Positions 5,926-40,655 of a DNA stretch of 64,000 nt are shown piece by piece (the first letter of the stretch is position 1; every line of letters starts with the position of its first letter). The stretch covers positions 4,380-68,379 of the IMG/VR virus record IMGVR_UViG_3300021431_000122; one strand, 5' to 3'. The translations under genes and the position numbers were made by a program. The notes beneath the pieces are model-generated. The model worked only from the letters and a program-made list of their open reading frames with translations. It was not told the DNA's origin and made no database searches. This DNA is from a virus. Taxonomy: Duplodnaviria; Caudoviricetes.

Positions 5926-6536
5926 CATTGGTAGTCTTGCTGTGCGTACAAATATCTTGGTGAAGATGCGCTAGTCACGTTGCCAAGAGCATCTGAAATG
6001 CGAGAGCTTACGGGTTGGGATACTGGCCAGTAGGCTCTTTTGATTTTGTCGTGAGACAATTTCGTCAAGGAAGGAAACCTCCAAGGCAAAGGATGTGTAC
6101 TGCATTATATCGTTGTATAGTGCCAATTTCACGCCGTCCCGAAAATACACCGCCACTAGGAGTGGAGCAACCCTGATGCCATGTGCGTAGGAAACACATG
6201 GAATGGAGTAAGTAGGGGAAACCTAAAAACAAGGGATGTTGTCGTTGATCTCTGGGAAACCGGAAGTATAAGGCGTGTTGGTTGGGTGAGTAGGGCAAAG
6301 CGACAGTCATGGTTACAGAAGAACAACATCGAGTGGTATGTGTTATAAAATTCTGAATGATGCCTGAAAGTTGTGGGCGAGGAATCCCACATGAGTTATG
6401 GAGTTACTACTCTGGGGTAAGAAGTGTATGGGCGACGGCTCATATGCTCAGACTTATCTCCTCATTCGCATAATAATATAACCATATAGTGTGGCAAGAC
6501 GAAGGTCTATTTGTTTGCACAGCAAGGCTACTGATG
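5926..6536 (+). ncRNA. Large ornate ncRNA, ROOL-like (GOLLD less likely on length)
   Basis: 611-nt gap with no credible ORF. Closed by a 20-bp helix (5926-5945 with 6517-6536, several G-U pairs). Several GNRA-capped hairpins. Motifs gggtgagtagggcaaa, gaatgatgcctgaaagttgtggg..aatccc and gctcagac resemble ROOL as recalled; not verified by a covariance search. Confidence 0.7.
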
Positions 6537-7903: not shown

Positions 7904-9205
7904 GTGGCAGTACAAAAGAAAGGTATGAAGGTGACAAGCAAACGCACCACTACTTCTGCTCCTGTTACAGAGCGCAAGTCTGCCGCAGAAGTCAGACAAG
8001 AGAACGAAAAACTCTTAACAGAAAATCAACGATTAAAGAACGGTGCGTTTTGTTATATGTGCGGAAGGCACTTGGTGAAAGATCGGTTTTATGTTAGTAC
8101 CGATCCAAGAATACAAAGCGGTGTCTGTCCTATATGTAAAGATTGTGCTAGGAAAATTGCACACAGGATAGATGTCAATGGAGATGAACATGAACCTACG
8201 AAGGAATCTGTAATAGAAGCTTTGCGTTATCTGGACAAACCATTTATTGAGTCTGTGTGGAATGCAAGCATTCAAGAGTCTGCCAATCTTACGGCAGGTA
8301 AGACAAAGTCTACACCTTGGATGGCATATGCCAAAAACATTCAGATGGTGAATTATGTTGGTTTAACTTTTAAAGATTCGGACATGTTCAAAGTCCATAT
8401 CAAATATGACGATGAAAAGACCGAACAGGAATTAGTTGAAGAACACTCTGGTCAAGATACATATGATAGTTTTTTGAAAAACAAAGCTGACGTTATTCGG
8501 CTTCTTGATTATGATCCATTTGAGCGAGAACCAGTTAGTGATCAGCCGTTCTTATATTCTCAGCTTCTTGGAATGCTTGATGCTTCAGAAGATGCTAATG
8601 AGGATATGATGCGGGTCTCGTCTGCTATTCAGATTGTTCGTGGATTTCTTCAACTTCAGAAGATTGACGATGCTATTGCGAAGCTGATGGGTAACGTGAA
8701 TCAGTTGCAGGACAACTCTGCAACTATCAAGTCGTTGCAGGACAGTAAACAAAAGATTACAAGTATGATTACTAATCTTGCTGCTGAGAGTTGTCTGAGT
8801 TTGAAGAATAGTAAGAGTAAGACGAAGGGTGAAGATACTTGGACTGGTAGACTTCGTAAAATTAAAGATTTGAATTTGCGAGATTCAAGTTTAAATGGAT
8901 ATTCACTTGAAACCTGTAAAGGAATGCAACAAGTTGCGGATATTAGTATGCAAGCCATTATTAAAGGCTTGCGTCTGACCGAAGATGAGATGTCAGACAT
9001 TGTTGCAACGCAGCGTAAAAAAATTAAAGAAATGGATTTGCAAACAAAATCATACAAAGAAGCTGTTCGTATCTTATTAAGAGAAAATTTAGATCTTAGA
9101 GATACGTTAAGTAAATATAATATTGATAATGGCAATCTTGTCAATCTCGATGAAATTGTTAATACATATATTCTTCCGAGAAACGAGGTTGATTCAAATG
9201 GATAG
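7904..9205 (+). CDS. Zn-binding protein upstream of TerL (YonG-like; possible small terminase)
   Basis: CYMCG...CPICKDC; C-terminal coiled coil; overlaps the TerL start. Confidence 0.55.
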   Translation: MAVQKKGMKVTSKRTTTSAPVTERKSAAEVRQENEKLLTENQRLKNGAFCYMCGRHLVKDRFYVSTDPRIQSGVCPICKDCARKIAHRIDVNGDEHEPTKESVIEALRYLDKPFIESVWNASIQESANLTAGKTKSTPWMAYAKNIQMVNYVGLTFKDSDMFKVHIKYDDEKTEQELVEEHSGQDTYDSFLKNKADVIRLLDYDPFEREPVSDQPFLYSQLLGMLDASEDANEDMMRVSSAIQIVRGFLQLQKIDDAIAKLMGNVNQLQDNSATIKSLQDSKQKITSMITNLAAESCLSLKNSKSKTKGEDTWTGRLRKIKDLNLRDSSLNGYSLETCKGMQQVADISMQAIIKGLRLTEDEMSDIVATQRKKIKEMDLQTKSYKEAVRILLRENLDLRDTLSKYNIDNGNLVNLDEIVNTYILPRNEVDSNG

Positions 9206-23904: not shown

Positions 23905-24150
23905 ATGATGGAATATATGGATAAAAAATATGTTATGCGAACACTTGAACCGAAGCCGAGATTTCTTACACGAATTGTAAATCCAGACTTCACATATTCA
24001 TATGGTCTTTGTTCGGATCTTAAATCTGCATTAAAAGCAGACGGACACAATGCTGCTGATATGGTTATTTCTGAGTATATTGCTATTACAGATGAGCCGT
24101 TTGCAATAACTGCCGTTCCTATTGAAATTACATATAGGCTGAGAGGTTGA
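23905..24150 (+). CDS. Hypothetical protein
   Basis: RBS aaggag. Confidence 0.6.
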   Translation: MMEYMDKKYVMRTLEPKPRFLTRIVNPDFTYSYGLCSDLKSALKADGHNAADMVISEYIAITDEPFAITAVPIEITYRLRG

Positions 24151-24152
24151 TT

Positions 24153-24635
24153 ATGGCGATAATGGTTGGTATTGATTCGTCGACAAAGAAGACTGGAATG
24201 TCCTTGTTTGTTAATGGTGAATTAAAAGATTATTGTTTGGTCGACCGTTCTGCAATTCGTGATTTAAATGAACGAATGGATCAAATGGGACTTGGTATAC
24301 TTTCAGTTCTTGCTGACTGGGTTCCAGAAATGATTTATATAGAAGAACCAAAAGGCGAAGGACGAAATGTAGAACTGGTTCGCAAGCTTGCTGAAATACT
24401 TGGTATTGTGCGAGGTTGGGCTATCACTCACGATTGTTATTATGAAGAGGTGAAGCCAAGCACATGGAGACATGATCTTGGTATTGAACAAGGGAAAAAG
24501 AAACGTGATGAACTTAAGGCGGCTAGTATGGAATACGTTAAGAGCCGTTATGGAATTATACCAGTAACCGATGATGTTGCAGACTCTATTTGTGTTGGGA
24601 CTGCGATGGTTGAGAAATATGGAGGAAAAGGATAA
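24153..24635 (+). CDS. ruvC: RuvC-like Holliday junction resolvase
   Basis: VGIDSSTKKTG, IYIEE, VKPSTWR, DDVADSICVG. Confidence 0.82.
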   Translation: MAIMVGIDSSTKKTGMSLFVNGELKDYCLVDRSAIRDLNERMDQMGLGILSVLADWVPEMIYIEEPKGEGRNVELVRKLAEILGIVRGWAITHDCYYEEVKPSTWRHDLGIEQGKKKRDELKAASMEYVKSRYGIIPVTDDVADSICVGTAMVEKYGGKG

Positions 24636-25129
24636 TGAAGGTTAATGAGTTTGTAGATGGTTTTAATAAGGCAAACGATAAAGAGAAATACATTAAGAAG
24701 CATATCATAAACACATATGTTCCTTATGAAAAGAAAATTGCGGTTGCACGAAGTATTGTTGATAATACTAGTCATATTAAAATAGACAATGAACAAAAAT
24801 TCTATGTTAATTCACCGCAAAAATATATGTTATTTATTACTTCTCTTTTTAGAGAATATACTGATGTTATATTTGGCGACAACATTTTATCAGAGTTTAA
24901 TGCGCTTGAATGTTGTGGTGCTGTTGATATGCTTCCAAAACAAATTGGTAACGATTATCAGCGATTCAAAATAGTCGTTGATATGATTTATGAAGATACG
25001 GTTCAAAATGAACGCGATCTTGTTTCTTTTATTGAAAATAAAATAACCGCATTTTCAAAAATGGCAGACCAATTAATTGATAGCGGTTTACTTAATAATG
25101 TTAGTGGTGATGATAATGGCAACACTTGA
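24635..25129 (+). CDS. Hypothetical protein (possible tail assembly chaperone)
   Basis: Position upstream of the TMP. Confidence 0.5.
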   Translation: MKVNEFVDGFNKANDKEKYIKKHIINTYVPYEKKIAVARSIVDNTSHIKIDNEQKFYVNSPQKYMLFITSLFREYTDVIFGDNILSEFNALECCGAVDMLPKQIGNDYQRFKIVVDMIYEDTVQNERDLVSFIENKITAFSKMADQLIDSGLLNNVSGDDNGNT

Positions 25130-25610
25130 TGAGGTTTTTGAGGAAATATACGAAGATGTTAAGGCTCAAGTTCCAATTGCAATGAGAAATGCTGCTAGTA
25201 GTATAGCAAACGAATTAACGGATTTTGCTAGGACTACAATGGATGATTTTTACTCTTGGCCTCCAAAAAGATATAGAAGATTTGGAAGCCTTCGTAATAA
25301 TAGCTATCGTCGATTTTATAGAAACGCTCATAATTCTGTTTATCATGGCGGAGTTGAGTTGGTTCCAAATTACGGTAGAAGTTATCCAAGCGTTCTTTTT
25401 GAAACAAACGGGAAGGTAATGAGTGCCGAAGCAATATTTACATATGCTTATGACGAAGGAATGCATGGTAATACTCCACAGCTTGAAGTAGCTTTGGGGC
25501 GTCCTCTTACACACCCTCCAATAATGTCGCCTACACCCAGAGAAAGAATTGAAAGAAAAAGAGACGAGATCGAAGGACACGTTGAGGATTATATACACTT
25601 TAATCTTTAA
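25116..25610 (+). CDS. Hypothetical tail-module protein
   Basis: Overlaps the previous stop; G.HG motif. Confidence 0.55.
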   Translation: MATLDEVFEEIYEDVKAQVPIAMRNAASSIANELTDFARTTMDDFYSWPPKRYRRFGSLRNNSYRRFYRNAHNSVYHGGVELVPNYGRSYPSVLFETNGKVMSAEAIFTYAYDEGMHGNTPQLEVALGRPLTHPPIMSPTPRERIERKRDEIEGHVEDYIHFNL

Positions 25611-25622
25611 GGGGGTTACATA

Positions 25623-28600
25623 ATGGGGCGTGAAGCTATAATTGATGTATCGTTAAGATTTAATTATGAAAAGACACATGGTAGTCTTAACAATTTAAAA
25701 AAGGGATTGCGTGAAATTGGAGAAAGTGTTGATGTTGACTCTCCAATTCGTGAGCAAGTTAATAGAATTGAAGGCGCTGTAGATGAACTGCAAAATAAGC
25801 TGGACAGTTTAAAGCTGGGTAAAATAAGCAGTACTGCATTTAATAATGCCGTTAATGATATTAACAGTTCAGTAGATGAGCTTTCAAAGCGCATGCTTGC
25901 TTTGGAATCATTATTTCAAGGCAGTGGCGATGGAGCAAGCAATCTTCTTAACAATGCTAAATCAGAATTAAAGTCTGTAGTTAATATGGCTAACGAGGCA
26001 ATGGATGCTGTAAAAAAAATCAGAGAAGCGTCCGGTGCCAATTCTATAAATATTATTGATACCAAAGAATTAGAAAACAGGAAAAAAAAACTAAAACAAT
26101 TATCTGATGCGATTGAAACCGCAGAAGAAGGTGGTTTCAGTATTAAAGATAAGACCAAATTTAACAGTCGTACAGATAAAGAAAATTTAGATTTATATAT
26201 AAATCGTATTGAAGAGTTAACCAAACTGCAACAAAAATTATCATCTACTAAAGTTGATGATCCAGGTTTTGCCGATCTTGCAAAAGATGTTGCTACTTAT
26301 TCAGCGAGTGTATCTAAGCTTTATAATGCTATTACTGAAAAGATGACTGAAACCGGAAGTGATACTTTTGCCGGTATGAAACTTTCTGGTATTGACGATT
26401 TATATAACAATGCCGCTAAAGCAATGTCGTCAGCTCGTGATGTTATTGACAAAGGTGTTCGTGATATCAATGATAGCATGGCTGCTCTTGGAAATAAAAG
26501 TAACGAGCCAGAGACAATCACATTGGATTTTAAAACGTCAACTACAGAATTAAAGGAAAAACTTATAAAGATGATTTCTGCACTTCAACAGGTGGCTGCT
26601 TCTCATCCTGTCGAAGTGGAATTAAATTTTACCTCTGGTTGGGCAACAAAGAAAAATAAAAAGCTGCTTAAGGAATTTGAAACAAAAATTAATAGTCTAA
26701 CCGACAAAACTACAAAAGAAGAAATGCAGAAGTTAGTTGATGATATTTCTGCTAGTTTTGGTAATAGATTAGATTTTGAGATTAAGTCAGAAAAACTTGA
26801 TGATGTAGAAAAAAAAGTCAAAGATCTTGTAGATAATTTAAAAGACATTCTTAAAGAAGACTTTTCTGTAGAGATATCAAAAGCATCATTTTCTGATGAT
26901 GTTAAATCTACTCTTCAAGATTCACTCAATGATATTGCAAAAAATTTAAAGATAGTTATTGATAACGTTGAACTTGGTGAAAATGTAAATGTTGCCGATT
27001 TACAACAAGCAGTTTCCAATATTAATAATACTATATCCAATCCACGGCTTTCTGATATTTTAAGACAAATATACGAAGCTAATAAAGATATGGATGATTC
27101 AAAATTTACTCATACGGACAATATAAATGGACAAGAAGTAGAAAGATATTTTACAAGCTTAGAAAGAAAATTGTATGTTAATTCAAAAACTGGATGGATT
27201 GGCAATCCATTTTATGCAGGAATAAGAGAAGGAACTCCTAGATTTAATAAGCAAATAGCAGAAGCTAAATCCGCAGGAGCTGATGTTGGTATTCATACTC
27301 ATCCAAGCAGTCTTTCTGCCATGTCTTATTTTTCTACTGGTGATTTTAAAAGTTTTTATGACCAATTTATATTTGATAAAATGAAGAAACAGGTTGTTTC
27401 TTCTCGAATTGATGCCGAAATTTTTGATGTTGAAGGTTTCTTTTCAAAGTATGCGGATCTAATAGATTTTGCAAATCAATCTGTTTGGGACGAATTAACA
27501 AAAGAGGAAAGCAAATTTCAGGAACAATATAGAAAAATTCCAAATCGTGATAGATTTTATAGTTTTTTTAAAGATCAAATGACCGATGAAGATTATGATA
27601 CATTTATTTCAAATATATTAGAAAAATATGCTCTTCAAAAAGATCTTGATGTTTTAAAGAAAAATGGAAGTATTAAATCGCAATTAGAAAAAATATATGC
27701 GAACGATAAAAATACAAATATCACTACTGCAATAAATCAGCTTTTAAGAGGTTCATTGTCTGACAAACATATACAACGGTTGACTTCTAGGAAAGACATT
27801 GATTTTAATGGTGCTATTACTGGAAGTATTACAAAGATAATGGCTTCGCATGGATATGATTTACAAGATGCATTTCAATATCATTATGGCCAATATATGA
27901 AAACTGCTGTTGAGAATGCATGGGGAAAATATTCTAAAGATGGAAAAAGTACCAAGGATATTGGAGAAGATCTTGTAAATAATTTTATCAAGATTGTGCC
28001 TTCCGAAAAACTTGATGAAGCACTCGGTATAAGCGGAATATCTCAGGCGGCAAGTGAAGCTACATCATCTACTAAAACTCTTGGAGATGCATTACAAGAA
28101 ATTGTTAATATACTAAACGAAATTAAAGCGGGTTCTAATTTTGCTGATATATTCAAAGGTGTTTTTGAAGAATCTTCTGAACTTAAATCTTTTCTCGATT
28201 CTTTGAAAAAAGTGTTTAATACCATTGAAGAGATAAATGGCGCATTAACCAATGCATCTCCAACCGACACTCTTGGAGACATGAGTGGTATTAGTACTAC
28301 AATTGAAAACATAAATTCAGAATTAACAACTTTAGTAGGTATATTAAAATCATTTCCAGATATTTCTAATCAAATAAAATTAGACGACACCTTTAAGGCG
28401 ATGGCTGATTATACTGAACAGCTTGATGATATAAATCTTAAAGATGGCAATATGAAATCGGTATATAAAGACTTGATTTCTAATTATTGGGATTATGTTA
28501 AATCTGGTGGAACAAAAGATATAACAGAGTTAACTAGTAATAAAAAAGCTCAGAAGAAACTTAAAAATGGTTATGAAAGTTATTTAAAATTACATCCATT

Positions 28601-31600
28601 ACCCAACATTGAAGACGATGCTGCTAAAATGAAAAGTAGCATTGAGACTATTGTTAAGGCTGTAATCGAATTACGTACTTCCGTTGGCGAGAACTTTGGA
28701 AGTATATTTTCTGGAGATCTTGGTTTTAAGGATGCGGTTACCGGAATTCAAGATGTGGGCAATGCTCTCTTCTCTCTTCTTGAAATAATTGAAAAGTTTA
28801 CTGGCATATCTTCTTCTGCTACGCTTGACAAGTTATTCTTTAATCTTGGTTTTGAAACCGAAACAATGGGTAATATAGATGCGAGAAGCAAGGCATTCAA
28901 GAATATAATAAAACAGTATGATGAATATGTAAAAGCTGGCGGAACAAAAAAAATATCGGATCTGACACCAGACGAAGCTGTTAAAAAGAAGCTAGATACT
29001 GGTTATTCCAACTATATTAAAAAGCAACAAAACGCCGAAAAGGCCAGTCGTGCTGCGGTGAAGGCCAGAGAATCTGTAATGAAGGCCGAGGAGGAAGAAA
29101 TAGCATCTTTTGGTGCTGTAGCTGTTCCGGTTGATGAGGTAGATGAAAAAAATGATAAATTGCAAAAATCGTTTGAAGAAGTTGTAAATGGCATTAAAGA
29201 TGTACAAACTTCTATTTCTACCTTAAAGGATTCTCTTAACTTCTCTGAAGGTGTAACTGGTATTAACACACTTGTTTCATCTATGGAGAATTTAATCGCA
29301 TTATTAGAAAAGATGTCTGGATTTAAATCTAAGGCAACTCTCGATAATATATTTTCAAATCTCAGTGAAACAACAAAAGCACAGAGCAATTTAAAAGCGA
29401 ATAGTAAAATATTTAAAGATATTCTCGGACAGTACGATGAATATTCACAACTTGGTGGAACTAAAGACATAACAGAATTAACTGACGATGTTAAATTACA
29501 AGAGAAGCTTCGTGCTAAATATGCAGAGTATGTGAAGGCTAGACAAGAAGCTGAAGCAGTATCTAAACAACAAGCTACCACCTCTCAAACTTCGGCTGAA
29601 TCTGCAACCAAAGAAGCTTCGGCTTTACAAGGCATCACTTCTGCTGCTACTGCTGCTGCTACCGCAAAGGAACTGTTTACAAAAGCTAATCAAGGCGTAA
29701 ATAATTCTGCAATTAAATCGGCTGATTCAGTAGATGCTGAAGGCAATGCAATGTCTAGTGTTGCTAAAATTGCGTCTCAAATGCATGAAGCTAATATTTT
29801 GATGGGGCAAAATGAGGACGCAGCAAATGCTAAAGAACGTGGATTCTTTTTTAACACTGCTACGAGTCATGTTGGAAATCCTTTCTTGGTTGGCAGTACA
29901 GGTTCTTTTCCTCAGCATAAGTTAGATAAGACTGGGATGAATGCATTTTTGCATACACATCCGGCAACAATTGGTTCTTTGTCGCTTATTGACAAACATG
30001 GTGATTCATATAGCGGTGATCTAGTTTCTTTTATTAGCCAACTTGAAAAGGGCATATATACACAGATTATATCCGGGTCTGAAGAAAGTCAAATAATAGA
30101 TTTTAAAGGATTTGCTGAAAAATATAGCGAAAATTTAGATCATTTAAAAAAAGATGCTCCAAATGCCAATAAAATTCTTAGGGAAATCTTTAGAGACGAG
30201 GCAAAATCTTTCAAGGATTCTTATATAAGGAGCAACATGTCAGATTTTGTGGCTTATTATATAGAACAGTTAAGGAAAGATGAAGCAATATCTAATGATG
30301 ACGTAGTAAAATTAATTGATTCATTAGAAAATGAGGCGTCCATTTTTAATAATGGTGATGTAACGAAATATTTATTAGATAAATTTGAAGCTGCCAGATC
30401 AAATCCTGATATTGATCAAGGAATTAATCACATATTTGATTATATATTTCGTCCTCAAAATGCAGATGTTGAATTAGAAAATATACTAGAAAAGATTCAG
30501 TATAGTGGTTATGATTCAATACAAACCACTTTTAACAAATTAATTGATGAAAGTGAACTTCGCAAACTTTATCGTGATGTAGTAACCCCTAAGTTCTTTG
30601 ATGCATTATTAGGTGAAGGTGCCGGTGAAGATTTCATGAAAAACTTCCAGCGTGTGGTCAAAACAGAAGATCTTGATGAAGCGTTGGGAATGAAAGGTGT
30701 TTCTGCACAGGCTAGCAATCTAGTAGAAACATACTCTCTCATTAAGGAGATATCGGCAATTCTTTCTGGCTTCGGAGATGGTGCCAAAGGGTTTGAAGCA
30801 CTAAATAAAATCGTCAACAATCTTGGCGGTAAAAATGGTGATGCCAAATTACAAGCCACCGTAGATGGATTACGTCAGATATTTGAAATTCTTAATACTC
30901 CGATGTCTGAGTCTAGTATGATGGAGGCCATTACTAAAATTGCTGACTCCGGAGAAAAACTTAAAGACCTTGCCACTGTTTTGAAGTCTACAAAAAAAGA
31001 TCTTGATAATGCAAGCAAGACGGTTGCAGGTGAAAATCAGCCTAATACATTTACCGAAGATGAATTTGAAAAGGAACGTAAAATACTTGAAGAGGGTCGT
31101 AAGTATTTAAGTAATTATGGTCAAGTGCTTGATGTAGTATTATCAAGAGGCAAAAACGGTATGACCAATCTTGTATCTAGAGTTATGGGTGAAGATCCAA
31201 ATACTCATGAAAAGAAGATACAAGAAGTAAAGCTTACTACTGCTGACGGTCGTTATTTTACAAGAGATTACATCAAACAGAATACTGCTGATCTTGCTAA
31301 ATATATGATGCAGATGCAACGTGCCAAAGAATTTGCCGAATCAAGGATGAAGTTTGGCACAGAAGAAGTTTTTCTTAAAGATGATACTGATGAAGAGACA
31401 TGGAATAAATTAATTAGTTATGCTTCGCAGTATGCCGAGCAGATAGGTAATATTCTAAAGATTACTAGACAAACAAGACAAAATGCCTCTGGTAACCTTC
31501 TTGAATCTTTTACATTTGTTGGTGACAAAGGTCATGTTACAATGGGGCAGGAATTTGATGAGGTTGCTAGTAGTCAAACCTACACTAATCCTCAGCAGAT

Positions 31601-32933
31601 TGCTTCTGCTTATGATAATTTAACAAGGTCTGTAAATGCGTATGTTAAAGCTAAAATGGAATCTTCACTTAAGAGTGGTGATTTCGGTGATACTGCTGCT
31701 ATAAATGAAATTGATACTCTTGTTAATAAACTGACGATAGATACACAAGAGGCAAATCAAAAACTTGGTAGCATGCAGAACATTGCACAAGAAGCTAAGG
31801 TGCGTTATGAAGATGCATTGTCCGGTGCTTATGATAATTATATAAATGATTATTTAAAAAAGGCACAGGGACAGGTAGATAGGGCAAATGCTACTCGTGC
31901 AAACCAACGCAATGGATATACAGAAGAATATCTTGAACAATTAAAGAAATATAAAGAAGTTTCTGATGAGTTAAAAACTTTACGTGAAAGTCATCAAGCC
32001 GGACAGTTATGGAATAATGATGAATTAGAAAAAACGGTTCAGCTTATTCAAACAATAGAACGAATACTTCCCGGTTTAAAAGATAATAATAATATACTTG
32101 CTAAAACAAGCGATATTGATAAAGAGCTTTCAAAACTCAACAAAGATTTAGCCGACAACTCTATTAGCGGTGAATTATTAAATAGATATATGACCTTGGT
32201 TAACTATCTTAATCAAGTGCGTACAGCCGGTGAAGGAGCCGCCGAAGGCTTATCTCAGATTAGTAAGATTGAGTTAGGAAAAGTGAAAGACGAAGTCCAA
32301 GATCTTCATAATCAAATGATCCAAACCGGTCAATATGGTAAGGGATTTTGGAAACAGTTTACTGGTGCTATTACATCTAGCAGTGCCAATTTCTTAGCAA
32401 CATATTTTAGTCTTCAAGATATCATTAGATATGCACAAGATATAACATCAACTGTAACAGCTATAGATAGTGCGCTTATCGAATTGCAGAAAGTTTCAGA
32501 TGCTTCCAACGAAAGAATTCAACAGAACTTTGAAAAGTCTGCTCAGACAGCACAAGATATGGGTGCAACTATAACAGATGTTATCAATTCCACTTCCGAT
32601 TGGGCTAGACAGGGTTATACGGTTGATGAATCTGAAGAACTTGCAAGAGTGACTCAGCTTTATCAGAATGTTGGTGATAATATATCACAGGAAGAAGCGA
32701 GTAAATCGCTTGTTTCCACCCTTCAAGGTTTCCAACTTGGAGCAGATCAAGCCGAATCTGTAATTGATAAATTCAATGAAGTTGCAAATAATTTTAGTAT
32801 TGATACATATGGAATAGGTCAAGCATTAGAGCGTTCTGCTGCATCTTTCTATGCAAGTGGAACCGATCTCTCAAAAGCAGTTGCACTTGTTACAACTGCC
32901 AATACCGTTCTCCAAAATCCAGAATCCGTAGGT
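25623..32933 (+). CDS. Tape measure protein, exon 1 (2437 aa)
   Basis: Long helical protein; TP901-like TMP core begins near 32460 and is cut at NPESVG. Confidence 0.88.
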
Positions 32934-33234
32934 ATATAATATGTGCCTACCCATATAGTAATATATGGATAATAAAAGTAGCTATATCGGTCAAATGCCA
33001 GAGATGGTTTAGACCGAGGTAAGATAATCAGAGATGTGTAAAAGCACATCTTTTTTTATTACCGTAGAGACTGTAATGGGTGTTATGGTAACATAACAAC
33101 CTTCGCTACTCTCCCACTATGTGGGATGAAGATCCAGTCCGAACTGCGACGATAATCCAATATGAAATCGCAGAGATGGCCAGAAACGACCATCCGCTAT
33201 CAGTTTATCTGATAGTCATAAAAGTAACAGAATG
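32934..33234 (+). ncRNA. Group I intron (301 nt, ORF-less) in the TMP gene
   Basis: P1 exon gtaggt pairs with gcctac; P2 ccatata/tatatgg; P7 gactg (33069) / cagtc (33135); terminal G33234. Splice gives PESVG|TTFKTLSARLRG. Confidence 0.92.
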
Positions 33235-36200
33235 ACAACATTCAAAACTCTTTCTGCTCGTCTTCGTGGTTCTACTACAGAATTAAAAGAACTTGATGAA
33301 GAAACAGATGAGTATACAGAGACAACATCAAAGCTTAGAGATCTTGTTGAAGGTCTTACTGGCTTTGATATTATGGAGGATGAGAACAACTTCAAGGATA
33401 TCTATGAGATCCTTGTTGGAATTGGTAAGGAATGGGATAATTTAACAGATATTGAGCAAGCATCTCTTTCAGAAGCGTTAGCTGGAAAGAGAATGTCAAA
33501 CGCATTATTTGCTATTCTTAATAATATTGATACTCTTGAGGAAGCTTATAAAACAGCAGAGGAATCTGCTGGATCTGCTCGCAGAGAAGAAGAACACTAT
33601 GAAGAATCGGTTCAGTATAGAATTGATCAGACAAAGGCAAGTCTTCAGGAATTGTCTTATGATTTCTTAAGTTCAGATTTTCTCAAAGGATTAATTGAAG
33701 GTGCCAATATTTTTCTTCAAAAGCTTGATGAGATTGTTGAAAAGGTTGGTACGTTAGGTTCTTTAATTGCTGCGTTTACTGCAAAAGACTTTTTCATGGG
33801 TGCAGCAGGTGGAAACAGTATTTTCGCAGAAATCTTTAAAACCGCAGTTGGACCAAATGGCGATACTGGCACAATGATTGGAAACATCAAAAAACTAATA
33901 AGCGGAAAAGAAAATAAAGATGTTTCCAATGCAGCAAAAGCCGCAGGTAATGTCGCAGGAGAAGCACTTTCTCAGGGTGTTGCTGATGGCGTAAAGGATG
34001 GCGCAGCAGAAAAAGTCACGGAAGATGTTGTTAAGTCCGTGGCCGAAGGCGCCACTGATGCGGTTACTGAAAATGTAGCCGAATCTGGTGTTAAAAATGT
34101 TGTAGAAGCAGTAACAAAGACTGCATCGGAAGTTGCAGACGATGTTGCCGATGGTGCAGAAGACATTCTTGCTAAAGCTGTTGTCAATGAGTCCACGGAA
34201 GCAACAATGTCTAAAATGGCAAAACCACTTGCCGAAGGTGTTATTGATACTCTTGAAACCACTTTTGACGATGGTGATGCGGGAATTATTTTAGCCAACT
34301 CTTTAATTAATACAGAATCCATTTCGGAAGTTGCGGACGATGTTGCCGAAGTAGCCGAAAAGACATATGCCACCTATGCCGATAAATTAGCAGACATCGC
34401 AAAAGATGGGCCGATATTTAAGGATGCCGAACGAACATTAGCTAAAGGAGCTGCCGAAGCCGGTGAAGTTGCGGGTGAAGCAATGGCTGGAGGTATGGCA
34501 TCTGGGGCGTCTTCTGCCGCAGGCGGACTTGGATCAAAACTTGTTGCCGCTCTTGGTGGGCCAGTTGGAGCCGCTATAGCGGGTGTGGCAACCGCAGCTT
34601 TAGTAGGTTTAGCAATTGCAGGAGCTGTAAAACGTGCAAGAGAAGAAGCCGTAGAAGAAGCAACTCAAGAGGCTATGGATCTTGCGGGTCGTCAGAGCGA
34701 CATGGACAACACTATTGCTCGTGTCGAAGAACTTCGTAACAAATTAAAAGATTCAAATATCACAGAGCAAGAAGCATACAACACAAAGATTGAATTACTT
34801 TCAATTCAAGAACAACTTTCCGATTCTTATGGAACTCTTTCAGGGCAGATAGATCTTGTTAATGGTTCACTTAAGGAACAAATTGGCTTAATGCAACAAG
34901 CATCGGTATATGATGCAAATAAATTTTTAAACGAGAATGATAAAGCCATAAAAATTGCGACAAAGGAAATGACGAAAGAGCTAAACGATTCCTTGTCGCA
35001 AGAAATATCCATGTATGATCCCGCATTTGACAAGGTCAAAGAGATTGTAGATAAGTATAATTCGTTTAAATTAACATCTACTCAAGACGGTCTTTACCGT
35101 TTAGATATTACTGGAAATGTTCAAGAGGTTAATAGTCAGATAGTTAACTTTATGGCAGATCTTCGTGAATTAAGAGATGAATCTGGCAGTTATGTCGTTG
35201 ATATGTTATATGATAATCTTGACGGATATAATAATCATTATCAAGATGTCATAGATAAGAATCAGGAACTTTATAAAAAAGGTCTTGAAAATTCGTTATT
35301 AGTTAACGGGTTTGATGATTCTGGTAATCTCAAAGAAGATTCTGGCCTGAAGTATCTTAATGACCTTACTGCTGCCGCTGATACATTGAACGATTCTATC
35401 ATTGGTGTTAATGATATATCAGTTGATGAAGCTCTTACCGGATATAAGAATGCGTGGATTGCGGCCCAAGGTTTCTTGAAAGATTCTCCGCAATACTCTG
35501 TCTTATTTGATGAGGTTGCCGAATCTGCAAATACATCAAATGTTTCGCTTGCGAAATTCAAAGAAAATGTTAACGATTCCGATTCAAGACTTGGCAAATT
35601 TGCAAAAGATGTTAAGGATTCAAAACTGTCTGAATCAGATATCTTTGATATTTTGTATGGTAAAACTACAAATGTAGGTTCTGGATCTGACGCTATTCTT
35701 GCTCTTGCAAAAAGCTTTGGAATTCTTAAAGGGGATGTTGCTCCTACTGAGGCACAGATTACTTCTTTTGTTGATGTATTAAAAGATCTTGGTGTGATTG
35801 CTTCTGATGTTGCAGAAGATGGTACGATTGATTTAAGTGGTTTCTTCAAAGAAGCCTCCAATGCTGTTGCTCAAGTCGACAAGATGAATGCCGCTCTTGT
35901 CAGTGGATTGCAGAGCGGAGGCATGTCAATTAGCTATGAAGTTGGAGAAAATGGCGAAGAGTCTTGGACTGGCACTATAGAAGATGTCAGAAAAGCATTT
36001 GGCGAACTTGAATCGTTTAACATAAACGGTTTATTAAAGCGCACATCTAATGGTGTTAAGGTTAATCAGAAAGCATGGCGTAAACTTCGTCAAGAACAGG
36101 AGAATTTACAGAAGAAGAAGTTTCTTGAGAAACAAGCCGATTTAACAGCTCAACTTACCGATTTGCAAACGCAGTTGATTGCGGCTCAAGCCAAAGGTGA

Positions 36201-39200
36201 AGATACAGGAAATCTACAAAAAAGAATTAGCGACCTTCAAGAAAACATAGACAATGTCAACTTTCTTGCAGCTGCTTATGACGGTGCAACATCAGCGTAC
36301 CAGAAATGGTTAGATGTACAGGCAGGACCTAAAGAGGGAGATATCTACGACAATATACGTGACAATGCGCTTACTCGTGGTGATGAACTTCTTAAGAATG
36401 GAATGGTTGGCGATGAATTTAGATCGATTGCGCAGATGTTCAGTTCAGAAGATCTTTCAACTGCACCACTTGAGCAAGTAATTGAAGCGTATCAAGCTAT
36501 TGATAAGATTGTTCCGGGTACTACTAAAAAAGTTCGTGATTTCTTCACAGAAGATATGCAGGGCGCATTCGCCTTTTCTGATGCATTAGTTGAACTTGGA
36601 TATGCGACTGGCAGTTCCACAGAAGGTTATGAATTCGGTTTATTTACTACCGAAGAAATTGCTAAGTCTCTTGGAGTTAGTCAAGATATTGTAGATGCAA
36701 TCTTTGACAAGATGCGTTTGTTTGGTGCTGACGTTACTCTTCTATCTGATGATGAAGTCGAAAAATTAAAAACAGCAGGTAAAAACGTAGACGAGCTTCA
36801 AGATAAATTAGAGAATCTTAACAAAGAGCAAAAAGTAACTAAAGATAGTTCTGAATTAGATATCTCTGTAGCAACCAACTTTAATCTTGATGAATTAAAT
36901 ACCGTCGATGAATTACAAGGTAAAATTGACGAACTAAATACTCTTCGTGCAAATCCTAATATTTCTGATGAGAGCGCAAAAATTCTTGACAGCATTCTTG
37001 CTGAAGTAATTAAAAAGCTTGACATAATTAATGGTACAGATGCAAATCCTGACGTTATTACAATTGACGATGTTATTCAAGCGCAAGAACAGTTGGATAC
37101 TCTTAAAAAGCGTCTTGCACAGATTAAAGAATATAACGACACTCATATAAACGTACAGGTTAACGCAGAAGAAGATCAAACAGTTCAAGATATTGCAGAA
37201 TACCTTGCGGGACTTGACGAGGGTCTTCAACTTGATTTAGGTATTAATCCTGAAAATGTTGGCAATGCAGAAGCTATTATTGAGCAGTTGTTAAGTGGTG
37301 ATTTAAAAATCGAGGATGTCACCGGTGTCAAAGAAGGAGTTGAAAAAGAACTCAAAGCTGCTGATACTTCTGTTGATGTAGAAGCACATGTTAATACCGA
37401 TGGTATGAATGATCCTAATACGCTCATTCAAGAAAAGTTTGCAACAAAAGGTATAACTACAACAAATACTGTTAATACCAAAACTACCGGACAAGAAGGT
37501 GTTGATTCTCTTTCTGATTCTATAAACAATGTTAATGATAAAAAGGTAAATGTTGAAGCTAAGGTCAAAGGCACTGGGACTGTCATTGCTCTTGACAGGT
37601 CGATTGACGATCTTACAGGGAAAAAAGTAGAGGTCACGGCAGAGGTTCATGGAACTGGAACCGTAATGGCTCTGGCTAGTGCTATCAATGATTTAAGAGA
37701 TAAAGACATTACTGTAACCACACATCATAGAAATGATGTTAATGGAACTGCCAACAGAAGCACTCAAGCTAACGGTACTGCTCATGTAGGAGGCACAACT
37801 TATGCTCATGGTAAATGGGGCGCACCTCGTACTGAGACTGCTCTTGTTAATGAGCTTGGCCCAGAGATAATTGTTCGTGATGGCAGATGGTTTACAGCCA
37901 ATGATGGTCAGCCCGGATTTACAGGAATAAAGAAGGGTGACATTATCTTTAATCATAAGCAGTCTGAAGAACTTCTCAAGAATGGTTATGTCACAAAGGG
38001 CTATGCTCACATGGCATTTGCTGAAGGAACTGCATATGCTAATGTGGGAAGTTGGGGAGCTTATTTTACTCAACAGCAATATAACAAGCAAGGTATTAAT
38101 ACTGCAAGTACGGTTCAAGCATCTGCTGTTAATGCGGCTAATGCTGTAAAGGATGCGGCGAAGAAGGTTAAGGATGATGTTGATAAAACCGTTGACTGGA
38201 TTGAAATTCTTCTTGACAGAATCGACCGCAGAATTCAGACTCTTGCAGATGCGGCTGATGATACTTGGAGAACATTCTCATCTCGTAGAAATAATTTGTA
38301 TAAAGAGATAGATGCTGTAAGACAACAAGAAGTCTATGCACAGCAAGGAGCCGAGCGTTATAAGAAACAGGCTAATAAGGTCGGTCTTCCTGCCAACTTG
38401 AGAAAGCTTGTTCAGCAAGGTAAAATTGACATCTCCTCTGTTAAAACCGAAGACCTCAAAAAGAAAGTAGAAGAATATCAAGGTTGGTGGGATAAATATC
38501 TTGATTGTCTCGCTCTTGTAAAAGAGTCTCAATATACTCAGAACGAATTATTCAATCAAAATTATGACATGGTGAAGACTGAATACGAAGGTCTTCTTGG
38601 TAGTATTGAGCATTCGATTACTACTCTTCAGAATTTCATAGACATTGCCGAAGAAGACGGTCATTTCAGTAGTTCGAAATACTATACTGAAATGATTAAG
38701 TATGAGAAGAAAAATATTTCCACTCTTAAAAAGGAAAAGAAACAACTTACTACTGCTCTTAATGATGCGTTGGCTAATGGTCTTAAGGTTGGCAGTGAAG
38801 AATGGGTCAACATGACCAACGGCATCAAGGAATGCGATGAAGCAATTCAAGAGTCAACTAAGAACATCATCTCCTACAACAATGCTATTCGAGATCTTAA
38901 GTGGGAGCGTTGGGATTTCCTGATTGACCGCATCGAGGATGTTAATACAGAACTTAAATTCCTGTATGACCTTATTGATGAAGACAAGATGTTTGACGAC
39001 AAGGGTCTTGTCACAATTGCGGGCATGAACGGATTATCTCTTCTTGCGGAGCAGATGGATGTCTATATGAAAGAGTCTCAGAAGTATGCCTCAATGATAA
39101 AGACAACTGAGGAAGATCTTGCAAAAGACCCATATGATACTGACCTTATCGAGAAGCTTTCGGAACTTCGCAAGGCTCAACAGGATTCTATCATATCTGC

Positions 39201-40548
39201 TAATGACCAGAAGAAAGCAATTAGAGATCTTGTCAAGAACGGCTACGACAAGATGTCTGAATCTCTTAGGAAAATTATTGATGATTATACTGAACTCCTT
39301 GACAGCAACAAGGATATGTATGATTATCAGCAGAACGTCATTGATCAGCAAAAGGAAATCTCCAGACTTCAGCGACAGGTTCAAGCGTGGGGTGGAGACA
39401 ATTCTGAAGAGGGTGCGGCACGGAGGCAGCAGACATCCGCAGAACTTGCCGATGCTCAGAAGAAACTGGCTGAAACTATGGAGGATCGTAGAATTTCCGA
39501 AACAAAAGAAATGCTCAATGACCTTTATGATAATTATACTGAGATTCTCAACAACAGGCTTGATGACATCGAGGCAACAGTTGAACAAGTTGTTGATGCT
39601 GTTAATACCGTTGCGGCAGGAACAAATGCAATTGCTGATGCAAATGTCAGCATTTTGGATTTGAGTGGTTTAGTCGCCGAGGCTAAGAATGAACTGCTTG
39701 GTAGCAATGATAATATCATTTTGAAAACCATTAAGGATTCTGCGGAATATGTCGGATACAACATAACTTCAGAAACTCAAAAGGCTCTTGGTGATAATAC
39801 TGCAATTAAAGACGGTGTTCGTGAAATTGTATCCGCATTCCAGATGGGTGACTTTACAGTTAAAGATGCAGCTGTTATTAAATCGCTTAATGATATTTCC
39901 GATTTCATTTTCAAAGAGATGGTTCCCGCTCTCAATGCGATTGCAGAGGCCGAGATAAAAACTACCACAACCACAACCACAACTACTACTACGAAAAAGA
40001 AAAAGAAAACACCAACAACACCAAAGAAGAAAACATCTTCGAAAGTTGTTATAAAAACAAGCATTGGCAGTACAGCACCCAAAGGAAAAACTCAGAGTAT
40101 TATAACTAGCACCAAACAAAATGTGGAGGCAATTTTCAAATACGCTCGTGGTGGCAAGAATCTTAAAGAACAGCTTGCTTGGCTTGACGAGTATGGCAGG
40201 AACGAGACCATTATTCGCAAGTCTGACGGTGCAGTTCTTACACGCCTTAACCTTGGTGATTCTGTGCTGAAGAAAATGGCAAGTGATAATCTGTGGAATA
40301 TGGCAAACGATCCTACACAATTTATCAAGGACAACATGCCGAGCAACACGAAGGTATCCAACATTGGCGGTGGAACACAGAACAATTCGTTTGACATCAG
40401 CATCAATGTGCCGAATGTCACGAACTATCGTGAGTTCATGTCCGCTATGCAAAAGGATAAACAGTTTGAGAGACTTATTCAAGAAATGACTCTTGGTCAG
40501 ATGAATGGAAATAATTCTCTCAGAAAACACTCTATTAACATACGGTGA
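33235..40548 (+). CDS. Tape measure protein, exon 2 (2437 aa; spliced protein 4874 aa)
   Basis: Continuation of the TMP core; coiled coils; ALVNELGPEII and YARGG...E motifs typical of TMP C-termini. Confidence 0.88.
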   Translation, partial: TTFKTLSARLRGSTTELKELDEETDEYTETTSKLRDLVEGLTGFDIMEDENNFKDIYEILVGIGKEWDNLTDIEQASLSEALAGKRMSNALFAILNNIDTLEEAYKTAEESAGSARREEEHYEESVQYRIDQTKASLQELSYDFLSSDFLKGLIEGANIFLQKLDEIVEKVGTLGSLIAAFTAKDFFMGAAGGNSIFAEIFKTAVGPNGDTGTMIGNIKKLISGKENKDVSNAAKAAGNVAGEALSQGVADGVKDGAAEKVTEDVVKSVAEGATDAVTENVAESGVKNVVEAVTKTASEVADDVADGAEDILAKAVVNESTEATMSKMAKPLAEGVIDTLETTFDDGDAGIILANSLINTESISEVADDVAEVAEKTYATYADKLADIAKDGPIFKDAERTLAKGAAEAGEVAGEAMAGGMASGASSAAGGLGSKLVAALGGPVGAAIAGVATAALVGLAIAGAVKRAREEAVEEATQEAMDLAGRQSDMDNTIARVEELRNKLKDSNITEQEAYNTKIELLSIQEQLSDSYGTLSGQIDLVNGSLKEQIGLMQQASVYDANKFLNENDKAIKIATKEMTKELNDSLSQEISMYDPAFDKVKEIVDKYNSFKLTSTQDGLYRLDITGNVQEVNSQIVNFMADLRELRDESGSYVVDMLYDNLDGYNNHYQDVIDKNQELYKKGLENSLLVNGFDDSGNLKEDSGLKYLNDLTAAADTLNDSIIGVNDISVDEALTGYKNAWIAAQGFLKDSPQYSVLFDEVAESANTSNVSLAKFKENVNDSDSRLGKFAKDVKDSKLSESDIFDILYGKTTNVGSGSDAILALAKSFGILKGDVAPTEAQITSFVDVLKDLGVIASDVAEDGTIDLSGFFKEASNAVAQVDKMNAALVSGLQSGGMSISYEVGENGEESWTGTIEDVRKAFGELESFNINGLLKRTSNGVKVNQKAWRKLRQEQENLQKKKFLEKQADLTAQLTDLQTQLIAAQAKGEDTGNLQKRISDLQENIDNVNFLAAAYDGATSAYQKWLDVQAGPKEGDIYDNIRDNALTRGDELLKNGMVGDEFRSIAQMFSSEDLSTAPLEQVIEAYQAIDKIVPGTTKKVRDFFTEDMQGAFAFSDALVELGYATGSSTEGYEFGLFTTEEIAKSLGVSQDIVDAIFDKMRLFGADVTLLSDDEVEKLKTAGKNVDELQDKLENLNKEQKVTKDSSELDISVATNFNLDELNTVDELQGKIDELNTLRANPNISDESAKILDSILAEVIKKLDIINGTDANPDVITIDDVIQAQEQLDTLKKRLAQIKEYNDTHINVQVNAEEDQTVQDIAEYLAGLDEGLQLDLGINPENVGNAEAIIEQLLSGDLKIEDVTGVKEGVEKELKAADTSVDVEAHVNTDGMNDPNTLIQEKFATKGITTTNTVNTKTTGQEGVDSLSDSINNVNDKKVNVEAKVKGTGTVIALDRSIDDLTGKKVEVTAEVHGTGTVMALASAINDLRDKDITVTTHHRNDVNGTANRSTQANGTAHVGGTTYAHGKWGAPRTETALVNELGPEIIVRDGRWFTANDGQPGFTGIKKGDIIFNHKQSEELLKNGYVTKGYAHMAFAEGTAYANVGSWGAYFTQQQYNKQGINTASTVQASAVNAANAVKDAAKKVKDDVDKTVDWIEILLDRIDRRIQTLADAADDTWRTFSSRRNNLYKEIDAVRQQEVYAQQGAERYKKQANKVGLPANLRKLVQQGKIDISSVKTEDLKKKVEEYQGWWDKYLDCLALVKESQYTQNELFNQNYDMVKTEYEGLLGSIEHSITTLQNFIDIAEEDGHFSSSKYYTEMIKYEKKNISTLKKEKKQLTTALNDALANGLKVGSEEWVNMTNGIKECDEAIQESTKNIISYNNAIRDLKWERWDFLIDRIEDVNTELKFLYDLIDEDKMFDDKGLVTIAGMNGLSLLAEQMDVYMKESQKYASMIKTTEEDLAKDPYDTDLIEKLSELRKAQQDSIISANDQKKAIRDLVKNGYDKMSESLRKIIDDYTELLDSNKDMYDYQQNVIDQQKEISRLQRQVQAWGGDNSEEGAARRQQTSAELADAQKKLAETMEDRRISETKEMLNDLYDNYTEILNNRLDDIEATVEQVVDAVNTVAAGTNAIADANVSILDLSGLVAEAKNELLGSNDNIILKTIKDSAEYVGYNITSETQKALGDNTAIKDGVREIVSAFQMGDFTVKDAAVIKSLNDISDFIFKEMVPALNAIAEAEIKTTTTTTTTTTTKKKKKTPTTPKKKTSSKVVIKTSIGSTAPKGKTQSIITSTKQNVEAIFKYARGGKNLKEQLAWLDEYGRNETIIRKSDGAVLTRLNLGDSVLKKMASDNLWNMANDPTQFIKDNMPSNTKVSNIGGGTQNNSFDISINVPNVTNYREFMSAMQKDKQFERLIQEMTLGQMNGNNSLRKHSINIR

Positions 40549-40555
40549 GTATGGT

Positions 40556-40621
40556 GCGGCACTCGGTAGGTTAGTGGACTCATACATCCACTAATTGGAG
40601 GTTCAACTCCTCCGTGCCGTA
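40556..40621 (+). tRNA. tRNA-like element 2 (D-armless, Met-like CAT loop)
   Basis: Acceptor gcggcac/gtgccgt; T-arm ggagg-TTCAACT-cctcc; 8-10 bp stem ttagtgga/tccactaa with loop CTCATACA; only 6-8 nt replace the D arm. Confidence 0.7.
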
Positions 40622-40655
40622 TTTATTATTATATAAAAAGCAAGGAGATTTTATT

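Follow-up and report, generated by a model that had tools for sequence, protein, structure and literature searches.

A giant siphophage tape measure protein with two putative JAB/MPN+ hydrolase modules in its N-terminal extension

Wall-degrading domains are already known in tape measure proteins (TMPs). The M23 peptidase of T5 pb2, SPbeta YomI/CwlP and the Rpf motif of mycobacteriophage TM4 are muralytic domains embedded in the TMP, mostly in a C-terminal or central position. The JAB/MPN proteins form a second point of reference, and their catalytic JAMM motif has been defined as EXnH(S/T)HX7SXXD (PMC300881). Minimal JAMMs (PfJAMM1, 5LD9; AfJAMM, 1R5X/1OI0) present the E, H(S/T)H, x7-S, D order in a small single-domain core and stand alone. 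Zhang et al. 2012 (PMC3482391) described toxin-type JAB clades of polymorphic toxins, Tox-JAB-2 (DUF4329, PF14220) and Tox-JAB-1 (PF15659), which have the signature 'E, H[ST]H, S, D', occur in Caudovirales too and lack the Ubl-tail tunnel; for these clades and for RadC, nucleic acid was proposed as the substrate.

The window analyzed here, a 64,000-nt stretch of DNA from an uncultured gut phage of the Caudoviricetes, contains a TMP gene with two diverged copies of a domain that resembles these enzymes. The phage modules have the same residue order as the minimal JAMMs, but they lack detectable profile similarity to them, their Ser-Asp spacing is 5-11 residues rather than 2, and they are embedded in a 4874-aa structural protein. 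The Tox-JAB signature is present as well, and both would be payload domains on a delivery scaffold. However, Tox-JAB is a C-terminal toxin tip with a neighboring immunity gene, whereas the phage domains are internal (aa 463-632 and 1349-1518 of 4874) and flanked by tail genes. With the T5 pb2, YomI and TM4 TMPs the phage protein would have in common the carrier role, with a catalytic domain leaving the virion at infection, but its modules have a predicted JAB fold, lie in the N-terminal extension and are duplicated. We consider it somewhat better than an even chance (about 0.55) that the two modules are an active metal-dependent hydrolase carried as TMP payload, and, with every catalytic residue kept, the phage tail probably carries an enzyme. 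No description of duplicated JAB modules combined with a TMP was found in the literature. A JAB-type hydrolase that is duplicated and catalytically intact, placed in a head-proximal TMP extension, would widen the range of tail-delivered functions.

Tape measure gene and its intron-like insert

The TMP gene lies at 25623-40548 on the plus strand and is interrupted by a 301-nt intron-like insert, so that the spliced product is predicted to have 4874 aa. Exon 1 (25623..32933, +; 2437 codons) encodes a helical N-terminal extension that holds the two JAB modules and continues into the PF10145 core, of which it covers the first half. The group-I-like intervening sequence (32934..33234, +) falls between codons (phase 0), and exon 2 (33235..40548, +; 2437 codons plus stop) encodes the remainder of the core and the C-terminal part. 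The initial annotation had numbered its residues on the ORF at 25623-32939 (+, 2438 aa); the residue positions are correct, but the ORF corresponds to TMP exon 1 only. Its placement of the TMP core from near residue 2280 agrees with the profile matches, as PHROG 28 begins at aa 2282 and PF10145 (PhageMin_Tail) at aa 2308 (E 1.4e-14). The identification as a TMP rests on this core and on the location between upstream tail-module ORFs and distal tail genes; the genes downstream encode a DUF6558 tail protein and other components of the tail.

Several observations bear on the splicing. The PHROG 4211 profile is contiguous over the two ORFs, since exon 1 ends with its positions 493-770 and exon 2 carries 774-2538, and the spliced junction NPESVG/TTFKTLSAR aligns without gaps to an uninterrupted homologue (P0005), with 76% identity across the junction. 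At the 5' site of the insert the exon-final U forms the U.G pair of GUAGGU/GCCUAC. The insert has a terminal G and a precise phase-0 junction, and its fold z is -7.1. Rfam, searched with the insert up to E <= 10, gave no match to a group I intron.

Two paralogous modules and their predicted fold

Exon 1 contains two homologous modules of ~400 aa (aa 497-900 and 1388-1760; blastp E 6e-20, 25% identity over 415 columns), in agreement with the initial proposal of two diverged copies of one module. Each opens with a ~170-aa core bearing E...HTH-x7-S...D, and both cores are aromatic-rich islands within a helical protein. The core of copy 1 (27009..27518, +; aa 463-632), supported by the fold model and invariant columns, has as its putative catalytic set the invariant E514 (27162), H558 (27294), H560 (27300), S568 (27324) and D574 (27342). 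It is followed by a helical tail (27519..28322, +) with the conserved LDEALGISGIS (aa 797-807, nt 28011) as its closing motif, and then by three repeats of ~150 aa (28323..29642, +), each with the motif ..QYDEY.KAGGTK.I..LT.. and with GGTK at aa 962, 1106 and 1278. The core of copy 2 (29667..30176, +; aa 1349-1518), supported by the fold model and an Atlas language-model match, has the corresponding invariant residues E1405 (29835), H1444 (29952), H1446 (29958), S1454 (29982) and D1466 (30018), and its helical tail (30177..30992, +) holds the second such motif, LDEALGMKGVS, at aa 1684 (nt 30672).

The upstream signatures reported in the initial annotation were recovered for both copies (E514-R..N520..T523...G527-N-P-F530..G533 with H558-T-H560, and E1405-R..N..T...GNPF..G with H1444-T-H1446), and the interval of 27100-30120 given for them includes both residue 514 (nt 27162) and D1466 (nt 30018). 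H558-T-H560 and H1444-T-H1446 are the only two HxH motifs in ORF 25623-32939. The serine assignment had to be changed, since S571, which had been taken as the JAMM serine, is not conserved and the conserved serine is S568 (S1454 in copy 2), at the canonical x7 from the second His. The spacing had been described as departing from x7; the departure is real but lies in the Ser-Asp loop, where the gap is 5-14 residues against the canonical 2 (5 in copy 1, 11 in copy 2). A chance motif was ruled out by the paralogy of the two copies and by shuffling, in which 5000 shuffles of the spliced protein gave at least one occurrence of a loose JAMM regular expression in 0.42% of cases and at least two in none.

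The motif LD.ALG..G[IV]S closes every module in every homologue, about 240 aa past HxH, and this constant position favors a reading in which the JAB modules are a cis-acting maturation protease that cuts the TMP itself during tail assembly, trimming or releasing the N-terminal extension. The closing LDxALGxxG(I/V)S would be one candidate cut site. The reading as a whole is rather unlikely. The processing of lambda gpH to gpH* offers an analogy for TMP maturation cleavage, JAMM enzymes cleave after small C-terminal residues, which also counts for such a protease, and a separate gpK-like JAB gene was not found in the contig (PF14464, E <= 10). However, a role in assembly would call for conservation, whereas the module is missing from 69 of 77 related TMPs and varies from 0 to 2 copies in close relatives.

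The predicted fold is one part of the case for our preferred reading, an active hydrolase carried as payload. AF2 models of the two cores were built independently from shallow alignments (8 and 6 rows) and reached a pLDDT of 75 for copy 1 and 59.6 for copy 2. When copy 1 was searched against the 48,161 chains of VIA wide, the top 29 matches were all JAB/MPN (Z 5.0-7.3) and included PfJAMM1, BRCC36/BRISC, RadC, Rpn11, AfJAMM and Cap3. In pdb_via the same model matched BubCD (Z 8.2, rmsd 3.0, 109 aa), RadC (7.7) and Cap3 (7.5), although Z values of 7-8 are 'middling' by the search tool's own scale. The best 50 Foldseek matches of copy 1 were nearly all JAMM, yet with E values of at least 0.035. 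For copy 2, VIA wide placed PfJAMM1 (Z 7.5), RadC (7.2) and Cap3 (6.8) at the top. PfJAMM1 is thus the best or tied-best structural match to both copies (Z 7.3 and 7.5, ~105 aligned residues). In the model of copy 1 the Glu is at a strand start, HxH is at a strand end and the Asp caps the N-terminus of the following helix, an arrangement known from solved JAMM structures. Both copies are therefore predicted to adopt a JAB/MPN fold, and with JAB/MPN chains heading the structure searches for both, the fold first proposed from the motifs is upheld. Two other folds were considered and rejected. Cytidine-deaminase chains (Z 4.3-5.9) all ranked lower than the JAB chains, and a deaminase-type motif was not evident in the cores. 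An M23/LAS peptidase, which is what TMPs usually carry as an enzyme, would have the motif order HxxxD...HxH, unlike the cores, and none was among the structure matches.

Many MPN domains are non-catalytic, and several of these (Rpn8, CSN6, Prp8, eIF3f/h) are among the structural matches. Together with the non-canonical Ser-Asp spacing, this is what would be expected if the fold had been retained in the tail as an inactive scaffold or spacer, whose role would be that of a structural plug or an interaction domain. We regard this as very improbable, as inactive MPN domains lose the motif, whereas here 9/9 non-redundant module copies, at 26-57% identity, keep all five residues (E, H, H, S and D), and histidine is rare in the spliced TMP (35/4874 residues). 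Only 11 of the 111 ungapped columns of the nine-copy alignment are invariant, and five of them are these residues in JAMM order, so the conservation in homologues that the initial annotation had named as a check is seen. The module in the TMP of another phage (L030), which hhalign matches to the present module at 92% probability (P 6.7e-7, 118 columns), carries HNHP-x8-S-x2-D with the canonical S-x2-D, and the present spacing is therefore best read as a clade-specific loop insertion that separates the JAMM Ser from the Asp.

Comparison with described JAB families

Curated sequence models did not recognize the domain. Pfam, NCBIfam, PHROG and PADLOC gave no curated JAB match to the JAB cores, and PADLOC in particular gave none for copy 1, copy 2 or the homologues P0008, L030 and L039. 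PDB-sequence searches with the cores, as single sequence and as profile, were blank, and the contig had no match to the HMMs PF14464 (Prok-JAB), PF14220 and PF15659 at E <= 10. A Pfam match to UvrD_C (E 7.8e-5) was taken as noise because it did not reach the cut-off and had no other result in its favor. RadC-like JAB (2QLC, PF04002) matches both copies in structure (Z 7.0-7.7), and hhalign registers the module's HTHP-x7-S with HNHPSGxxxPS of four E. coli RadC, but not significantly (P 0.17). RadC also has the canonical S-x2-D and lacks the NSKTG..GNPF hairpin of the phage module. The DUF4329 protein of phage OP1, used as a single sequence, was likewise not significant by hhalign (P 0.17), and tblastn with it in plasmids gave zero relatives.

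The lambda tail assembly protein K, in which we take a JAB domain to be combined with NlpC/P60, is also a tail-module protein but is a separate small assembly protein outside the TMP, and its record is annotated only as a C40 family peptidase. Its alignment with the module by hhalign was not significant (P 0.054), with the 16-residue motif alone aligned. The translated gpK sequence does show a JAMM-like HSHP...SEAD, and to our knowledge the TMP enzymatic domains known so far are all muralytic (T5 pb2, SPbeta YomI/CwlP, TM4). Both points would suit a cell-envelope hydrolase that cuts stem-peptide or isopeptide cross-links of peptidoglycan and so aids penetration. However, the modules are in the head-proximal N-terminal half, which exits the tail last, we know of no JAB that cuts peptidoglycan, and a cell-wall-binding domain was not seen in Pfam-type domain searches, so we consider this role improbable.

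Comparison of language-model features placed copy 2 near DUF4329 (0.91; 16/30 matches, Atlas) and Toxin-JAB1 (0.90), and also near Prok-JAB. The DUF4329 neighbor scores of 0.91 and 0.84, taken as a lead only, suggest that the domain may be nearest to the toxin-type clades DUF4329/Tox-JAB-2 and Toxin-JAB1. This bears on the two roles put forward in the initial annotation, a deconjugase acting against ubiquitin-like defences or a toxin-like effector. In the first, the ejected JAB would strip Ubl conjugates made by type II CBASS (Cap2/Cap3), Bil or Bub, or Ubl attached to tail proteins. The fold-level matches to Cap3 (9ILD, Z 7.5 and 6.8), BubCD (9EA4, Z 8.2) and, from bacteria, a Ubl-deubiquitinase (8TYY, Z 5.2 and 4.9) agree with this, as does an accessory distribution typical for counter-defence genes. 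However, Cap3 and BubCD score on a par with RadC and archaeal JAMMs, the PADLOC and Prok-JAB models are without match, and the language-model neighbors are toxin-type JABs, which have no Ubl-tail tunnel (PMC3482391). In addition, the defence deconjugases sit in hosts, whereas the phage domain is in a tail module without E1/E2/Ubl neighbors. An anti-Ubl deconjugase is thus distinctly unlikely, and the toxin-like effector alternative fits better with these neighbors.

Proposed role and accessory distribution

Under the payload reading, each module would start with a highly divergent JAB/MPN+ (JAMM-type) hydrolase domain with a full catalytic set. Glu514/1405 would activate water, His558 and His560 (1444 and 1446) and Asp574 (1466) would be the metal ligands, and Ser568 (1454) would stand at x7, followed by the clade-specific loop and then the Asp. 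The modules would be an optional payload in the expandable head-proximal N-terminal half of the 4874-aa siphophage TMP, packed with it in the tail and leaving the virion together with it at infection, and the hydrolase would then act on a host macromolecule. Its substrate might be a peptide or isopeptide bond, the type that classical JAMMs cleave, or nucleic acid, in line with the proposal for RadC and Tox-JAB. Three copies of a folded domain of ~170 aa may fit poorly in the tail-tube lumen. Should the modules act on a host defence conjugate or other host macromolecule, they would represent a class of virion-borne effectors in gut phages that infect Bacillota. A broader and speculative view, which we think unlikely, is that the TMP serves as a delivery vehicle for counter-defence or host-takeover enzymes, with Ubl-stripping or toxin-type JABs injected ahead of the DNA and the N-terminal region acting as a swap-in cargo bay; the likeness this would give between the N-terminal region of giant TMPs and polymorphic-toxin tips is an equally tentative analogy.

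Relatives of the module are few, with only 6 among 1.84 billion representative proteins, and further homologous-protein searches (near and longer) added P0008 only. Searches with blastn and tblastn of 50,697 phage records found nothing, and module scans of viral, genome and metagenome contigs gave zero relatives. A module HMM run against 80 related TMP loci found no module. The JAMM-like motif occurs in 8 of 77 related TMP loci and is missing from the other 69, and it is confined to loci with N-terminal extensions of at least 1000 aa (8 of 23 such loci). In three related TMPs (L032, L045 and L066) the N-terminal extensions have other aromatic-rich islands in which no Pfam domain was found.

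The JAB module is an accessory part of the TMP, as its copy number is 0, 1 or 2 among close relatives. P0005 has one copy, and a relative with 98-99% identity (P0003) cleanly lacks the segment at 29787..30692 (+; aa 1389-1690) and with it the copy 2 core. The variable length of the N-terminal region bears on whether the whole giant TMP acts as a length ruler, and the natural occurrence of 0, 1 or 2 copies among near-identical phages provides ready-made comparisons for function.

The tape measure gene and its intervening sequence

The window comes from a 68-kb IMG/VR viral contig with a CheckV completeness estimate of 40%. In it, the tape measure protein (TMP) was found in two open reading frames of 2438 aa each on the + strand, ORF1 (25623-32939) and ORF2 (33232-40548). 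The PF10145 tape-measure core lies at aa 2308-2426 of ORF1, which stops mid-core, and the giant-TMP profile PHROG 4211 is matched at positions 493-770 by the end of ORF1 and at positions 774-2538 by ORF2. The interruption is a structured insert of 301 nt (32934-33234, + strand) inside the PF10145 core, in phase 0, exactly between codons. When the insert was removed, NPESVG was joined directly to TTFKTLSAR, and the resulting protein aligned without gaps to the uninterrupted P0005, a relative carrying the module described below, with 76% identity over 299 aa. Because the insert falls between codons, PHROG 4211 continues across it and the P0005 junction is gapless, sequence comparison indicates a single 4874-codon TMP gene split by the insert. 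The giant N-terminal extension described in the initial annotation is real, with ~2300 aa preceding the core.

The insert folds much more stably than shuffled sequence (z -7.1). It is preceded by an exon-terminal U, its last base is G, and a P1-like U.G pair is possible in GUAGGU/GCCUAC; Rfam gave no group I intron call for the 301 nt. Introns in TMP genes are already in the literature. Many related TMP ORFs (L013-L044 and others among the viral contig loci) end 150-400 aa past the start of the core, which suggests that the TMP core is recurrently split by intervening sequences in this group of phages. The ORFs of L043 and L044 end ~158 aa into the core, at the same site as in the window TMP.

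Two modules and their conserved residues

The initial annotation proposed that the extension holds two JAB/MPN-like metalloprotease motifs, as diverged copies of one module, and both points held. The only HxH motifs in ORF1 are at residues 558 and 1444, the sequence ER..(F/Y).N..T...GNPF..G lies ~40 residues upstream of each, and aa 497-900 and 1388-1760 match each other by blastp (E 6e-20, 25% identity). Of 5000 shuffled versions of the protein, 0.42% contained one or more matches to a loose JAMM regular expression and none contained two or more. The two cores form aromatic-rich islands, in which F/W/Y/H account for 16 residues per 100 aa versus about 5 in many flanking stretches.

When 1.84 billion representative proteins were scanned in full with HMMER, only six relatives of the module came up, namely four giant TMPs (P0003-P0006), P0007 with 886 aa and the stand-alone protein P0008 with 285 aa. 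Searching 5.8 billion clusters by word index gave no further module relatives. The nine non-redundant core copies are 26-57% identical and align cleanly. Among 111 ungapped columns, 11 are invariant in all nine copies (E514, R515, N528, F530, H558, H560, S568, D574, F606, Y610 and L625 in copy 1 numbering), and five of these make up the JAMM catalytic set, in the correct order, so the catalytic residues are conserved in homologues. The canonical JAMM motif has its serine seven residues past the second histidine, and two residues separate that serine from the aspartate (PMC300881). S571, previously taken as the motif serine of copy 1, is not conserved; the invariant serine is seven residues past the second histidine. 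The suggestion that the spacing departs from the canonical x7 therefore fails; it is the Ser-Asp gap that departs from the canon, at 5-14 residues versus two.

Predicted fold and links to known families

Both cores were modelled with AlphaFold2 on shallow alignments (pLDDT 75 for copy 1 and 59.6 for copy 2). The models share one topology: a helix, the strand with the glutamate, a hairpin, a helix, a strand ending in HxH, the serine loop, an Asp-capped helix and two strands. JAMM/MPN proteins made up almost all of the top 50 Foldseek matches in the PDB, none of them significant by E-value (best 0.035). An independent comparison of copy 1 by VIA-align with 48,161 representative chains placed JAB/MPN proteins in all of the top 29 positions with Z 5.0-7.3 (PfJAMM1, BRCC36/BRISC, RadC, Rpn11, AfJAMM, Cap3), followed by cytidine deaminases. 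Re-ranking of the Foldseek list for copy 1 gave BubCD at Z 8.2 (rmsd 3.0, 109 aa), RadC at 7.7 and Cap3 at 7.5; the separate model of copy 2 gave PfJAMM1 at 7.5, RadC at 7.2 and Cap3 at 6.8. BFVD gave weak matches, among them phage proteins labelled MPN domain-containing, JAB domain-containing, RadC, metalloprotease and "minor capsid protein". The predicted structures thus bear out the proposed JAB fold at moderate Z values, and despite these values we are persuaded that the modules belong to the JAB/MPN superfamily, because a single superfamily tops both independent searches and the motif agrees.

No curated model matched the cores in Pfam, PHROG, NCBIfam, PADLOC or PDB-sequence searches, and the Prok-JAB, DUF4329 and Toxin-JAB1 HMMs had no match anywhere in the contig at E <= 10. 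The hhalign comparisons with four E. coli RadC paralogues, lambda K and the DUF4329 protein of phage OP1 were not significant, although the RadC-type HNHPSGxxxPS fell in register with the module HTHP-x7-S in such an alignment. As a lead rather than a test, the language-model features of copy 2 were nearest to DUF4329 (0.91, 16/30 matches) and Toxin-JAB1 (0.90); those of copy 1, likewise a lead and not a test, were nearest to Prok-JAB, Toxin-JAB1 and DUF4329 at 0.84-0.87.

The N-terminal extensions of other giant TMPs contain JAB-like modules of different kinds. One, at L030:7934-8395 (aa 832-984; HxH at 8192, aa 918), reads NEHLGLLNSKTG...HNHP-x8-SITD, and unlike the window modules has the canonical S-x2-D. 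It is homologous to the window family (hhalign probability 92%, P 6.7e-7 over 118 columns). A RadC-like variant, ESMT.FG...HNHPDGM.AFTPSD, occurs at seven loci (L039:~7259, L047:~7259, and L043, L044, L048, L050 and L052) and has weak links to the window family (P 0.002) and Pfam RadC (E 0.095). No paper was found that combines tape measure proteins with JAB/JAMM/MPN or DUF4329. An enzyme domain borne by a TMP is of a known kind, here from a very divergent JAB clade.

Distribution and possible role of the modules

The locus set for module comparison, which includes L030, consisted of 80 viral contigs that encode a related TMP core. The module is accessory, since the window-family HMM found it in none of these 80 loci, JAMM-like motifs are sporadic and copy number varies. 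A JAMM-like motif of any type was present in 8 of 77 loci, every one of them belonging to the 23 with an N-terminal extension of at least 1000 aa. P0005 has one copy, and relative to it the window TMP has gained ~700 aa in the form of extra GGTK repeats and copy 2. P0003 (2137 aa, 98-99% identical) is a natural one-copy variant: it lacks exactly the copy 2 core, aa 1389-1690 (window 29787-30692), and the deletion ends at the motif LDEALGM.

The sporadic distribution and variable copy number speak for a payload and against a core role in assembly. TMPs exit the virion at infection, and their N-terminus is head-proximal. For these reasons we favour the reading, at a probability of about 0.55, that the JAB modules would be delivered at infection as an enzyme. 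The initial annotation went further and suggested that an injected deconjugase may act against ubiquitin-like defences, a role that we consider quite improbable; a role at the cell wall seems more improbable again. That none of the five catalytic residues varies speaks for an active metal hydrolase and against an MPN-minus scaffold, and an inactive spacer is the least probable of the readings. The putative enzyme may be a peptidase or a nuclease, the latter staying a candidate because toxin-type JABs and RadC have been proposed to be nucleases and not peptidases (Zhang et al. 2012, PMC3482391). Processing of the TMP in cis by its own modules is unlikely.

Every module in all homologues is closed by LD.ALG..G(I/V)S (window 28011-28043 and 30672-30704), a motif that may serve for processing or docking. 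Three ~150-aa repeats with ..QYDEY.KAGGTK.I..LT.. lie between the modules (window 28323-29642), and P0005 has one such unit.

By portal protein, the nearest isolates (24-27% identity) are large Bacillota siphophages, namely Brevibacillus phage Sundance, SPbeta-like phages, Lactococcus phage PMBT69 and Bacillus anthracis phages. The genes downstream of the TMP encode tail proteins. A tRNA-like gene called by ARAGORN (40550-40622; type undetermined, four-base anticodon 'cata') starts 2 nt past the TMP stop. Within the tail module is an ORF for a RuvC-like Holliday junction resolvase (24147-24635; PHROG 159, E 8.5e-19), and two overlapping ORFs directly downstream of it (24635-25129 and 25077-25610) could, by position, be a tail assembly chaperone pair. 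A complete ROOL RNA is also present at 5932-6527 (RF03087, 291.8 bits, E 5.9e-66).
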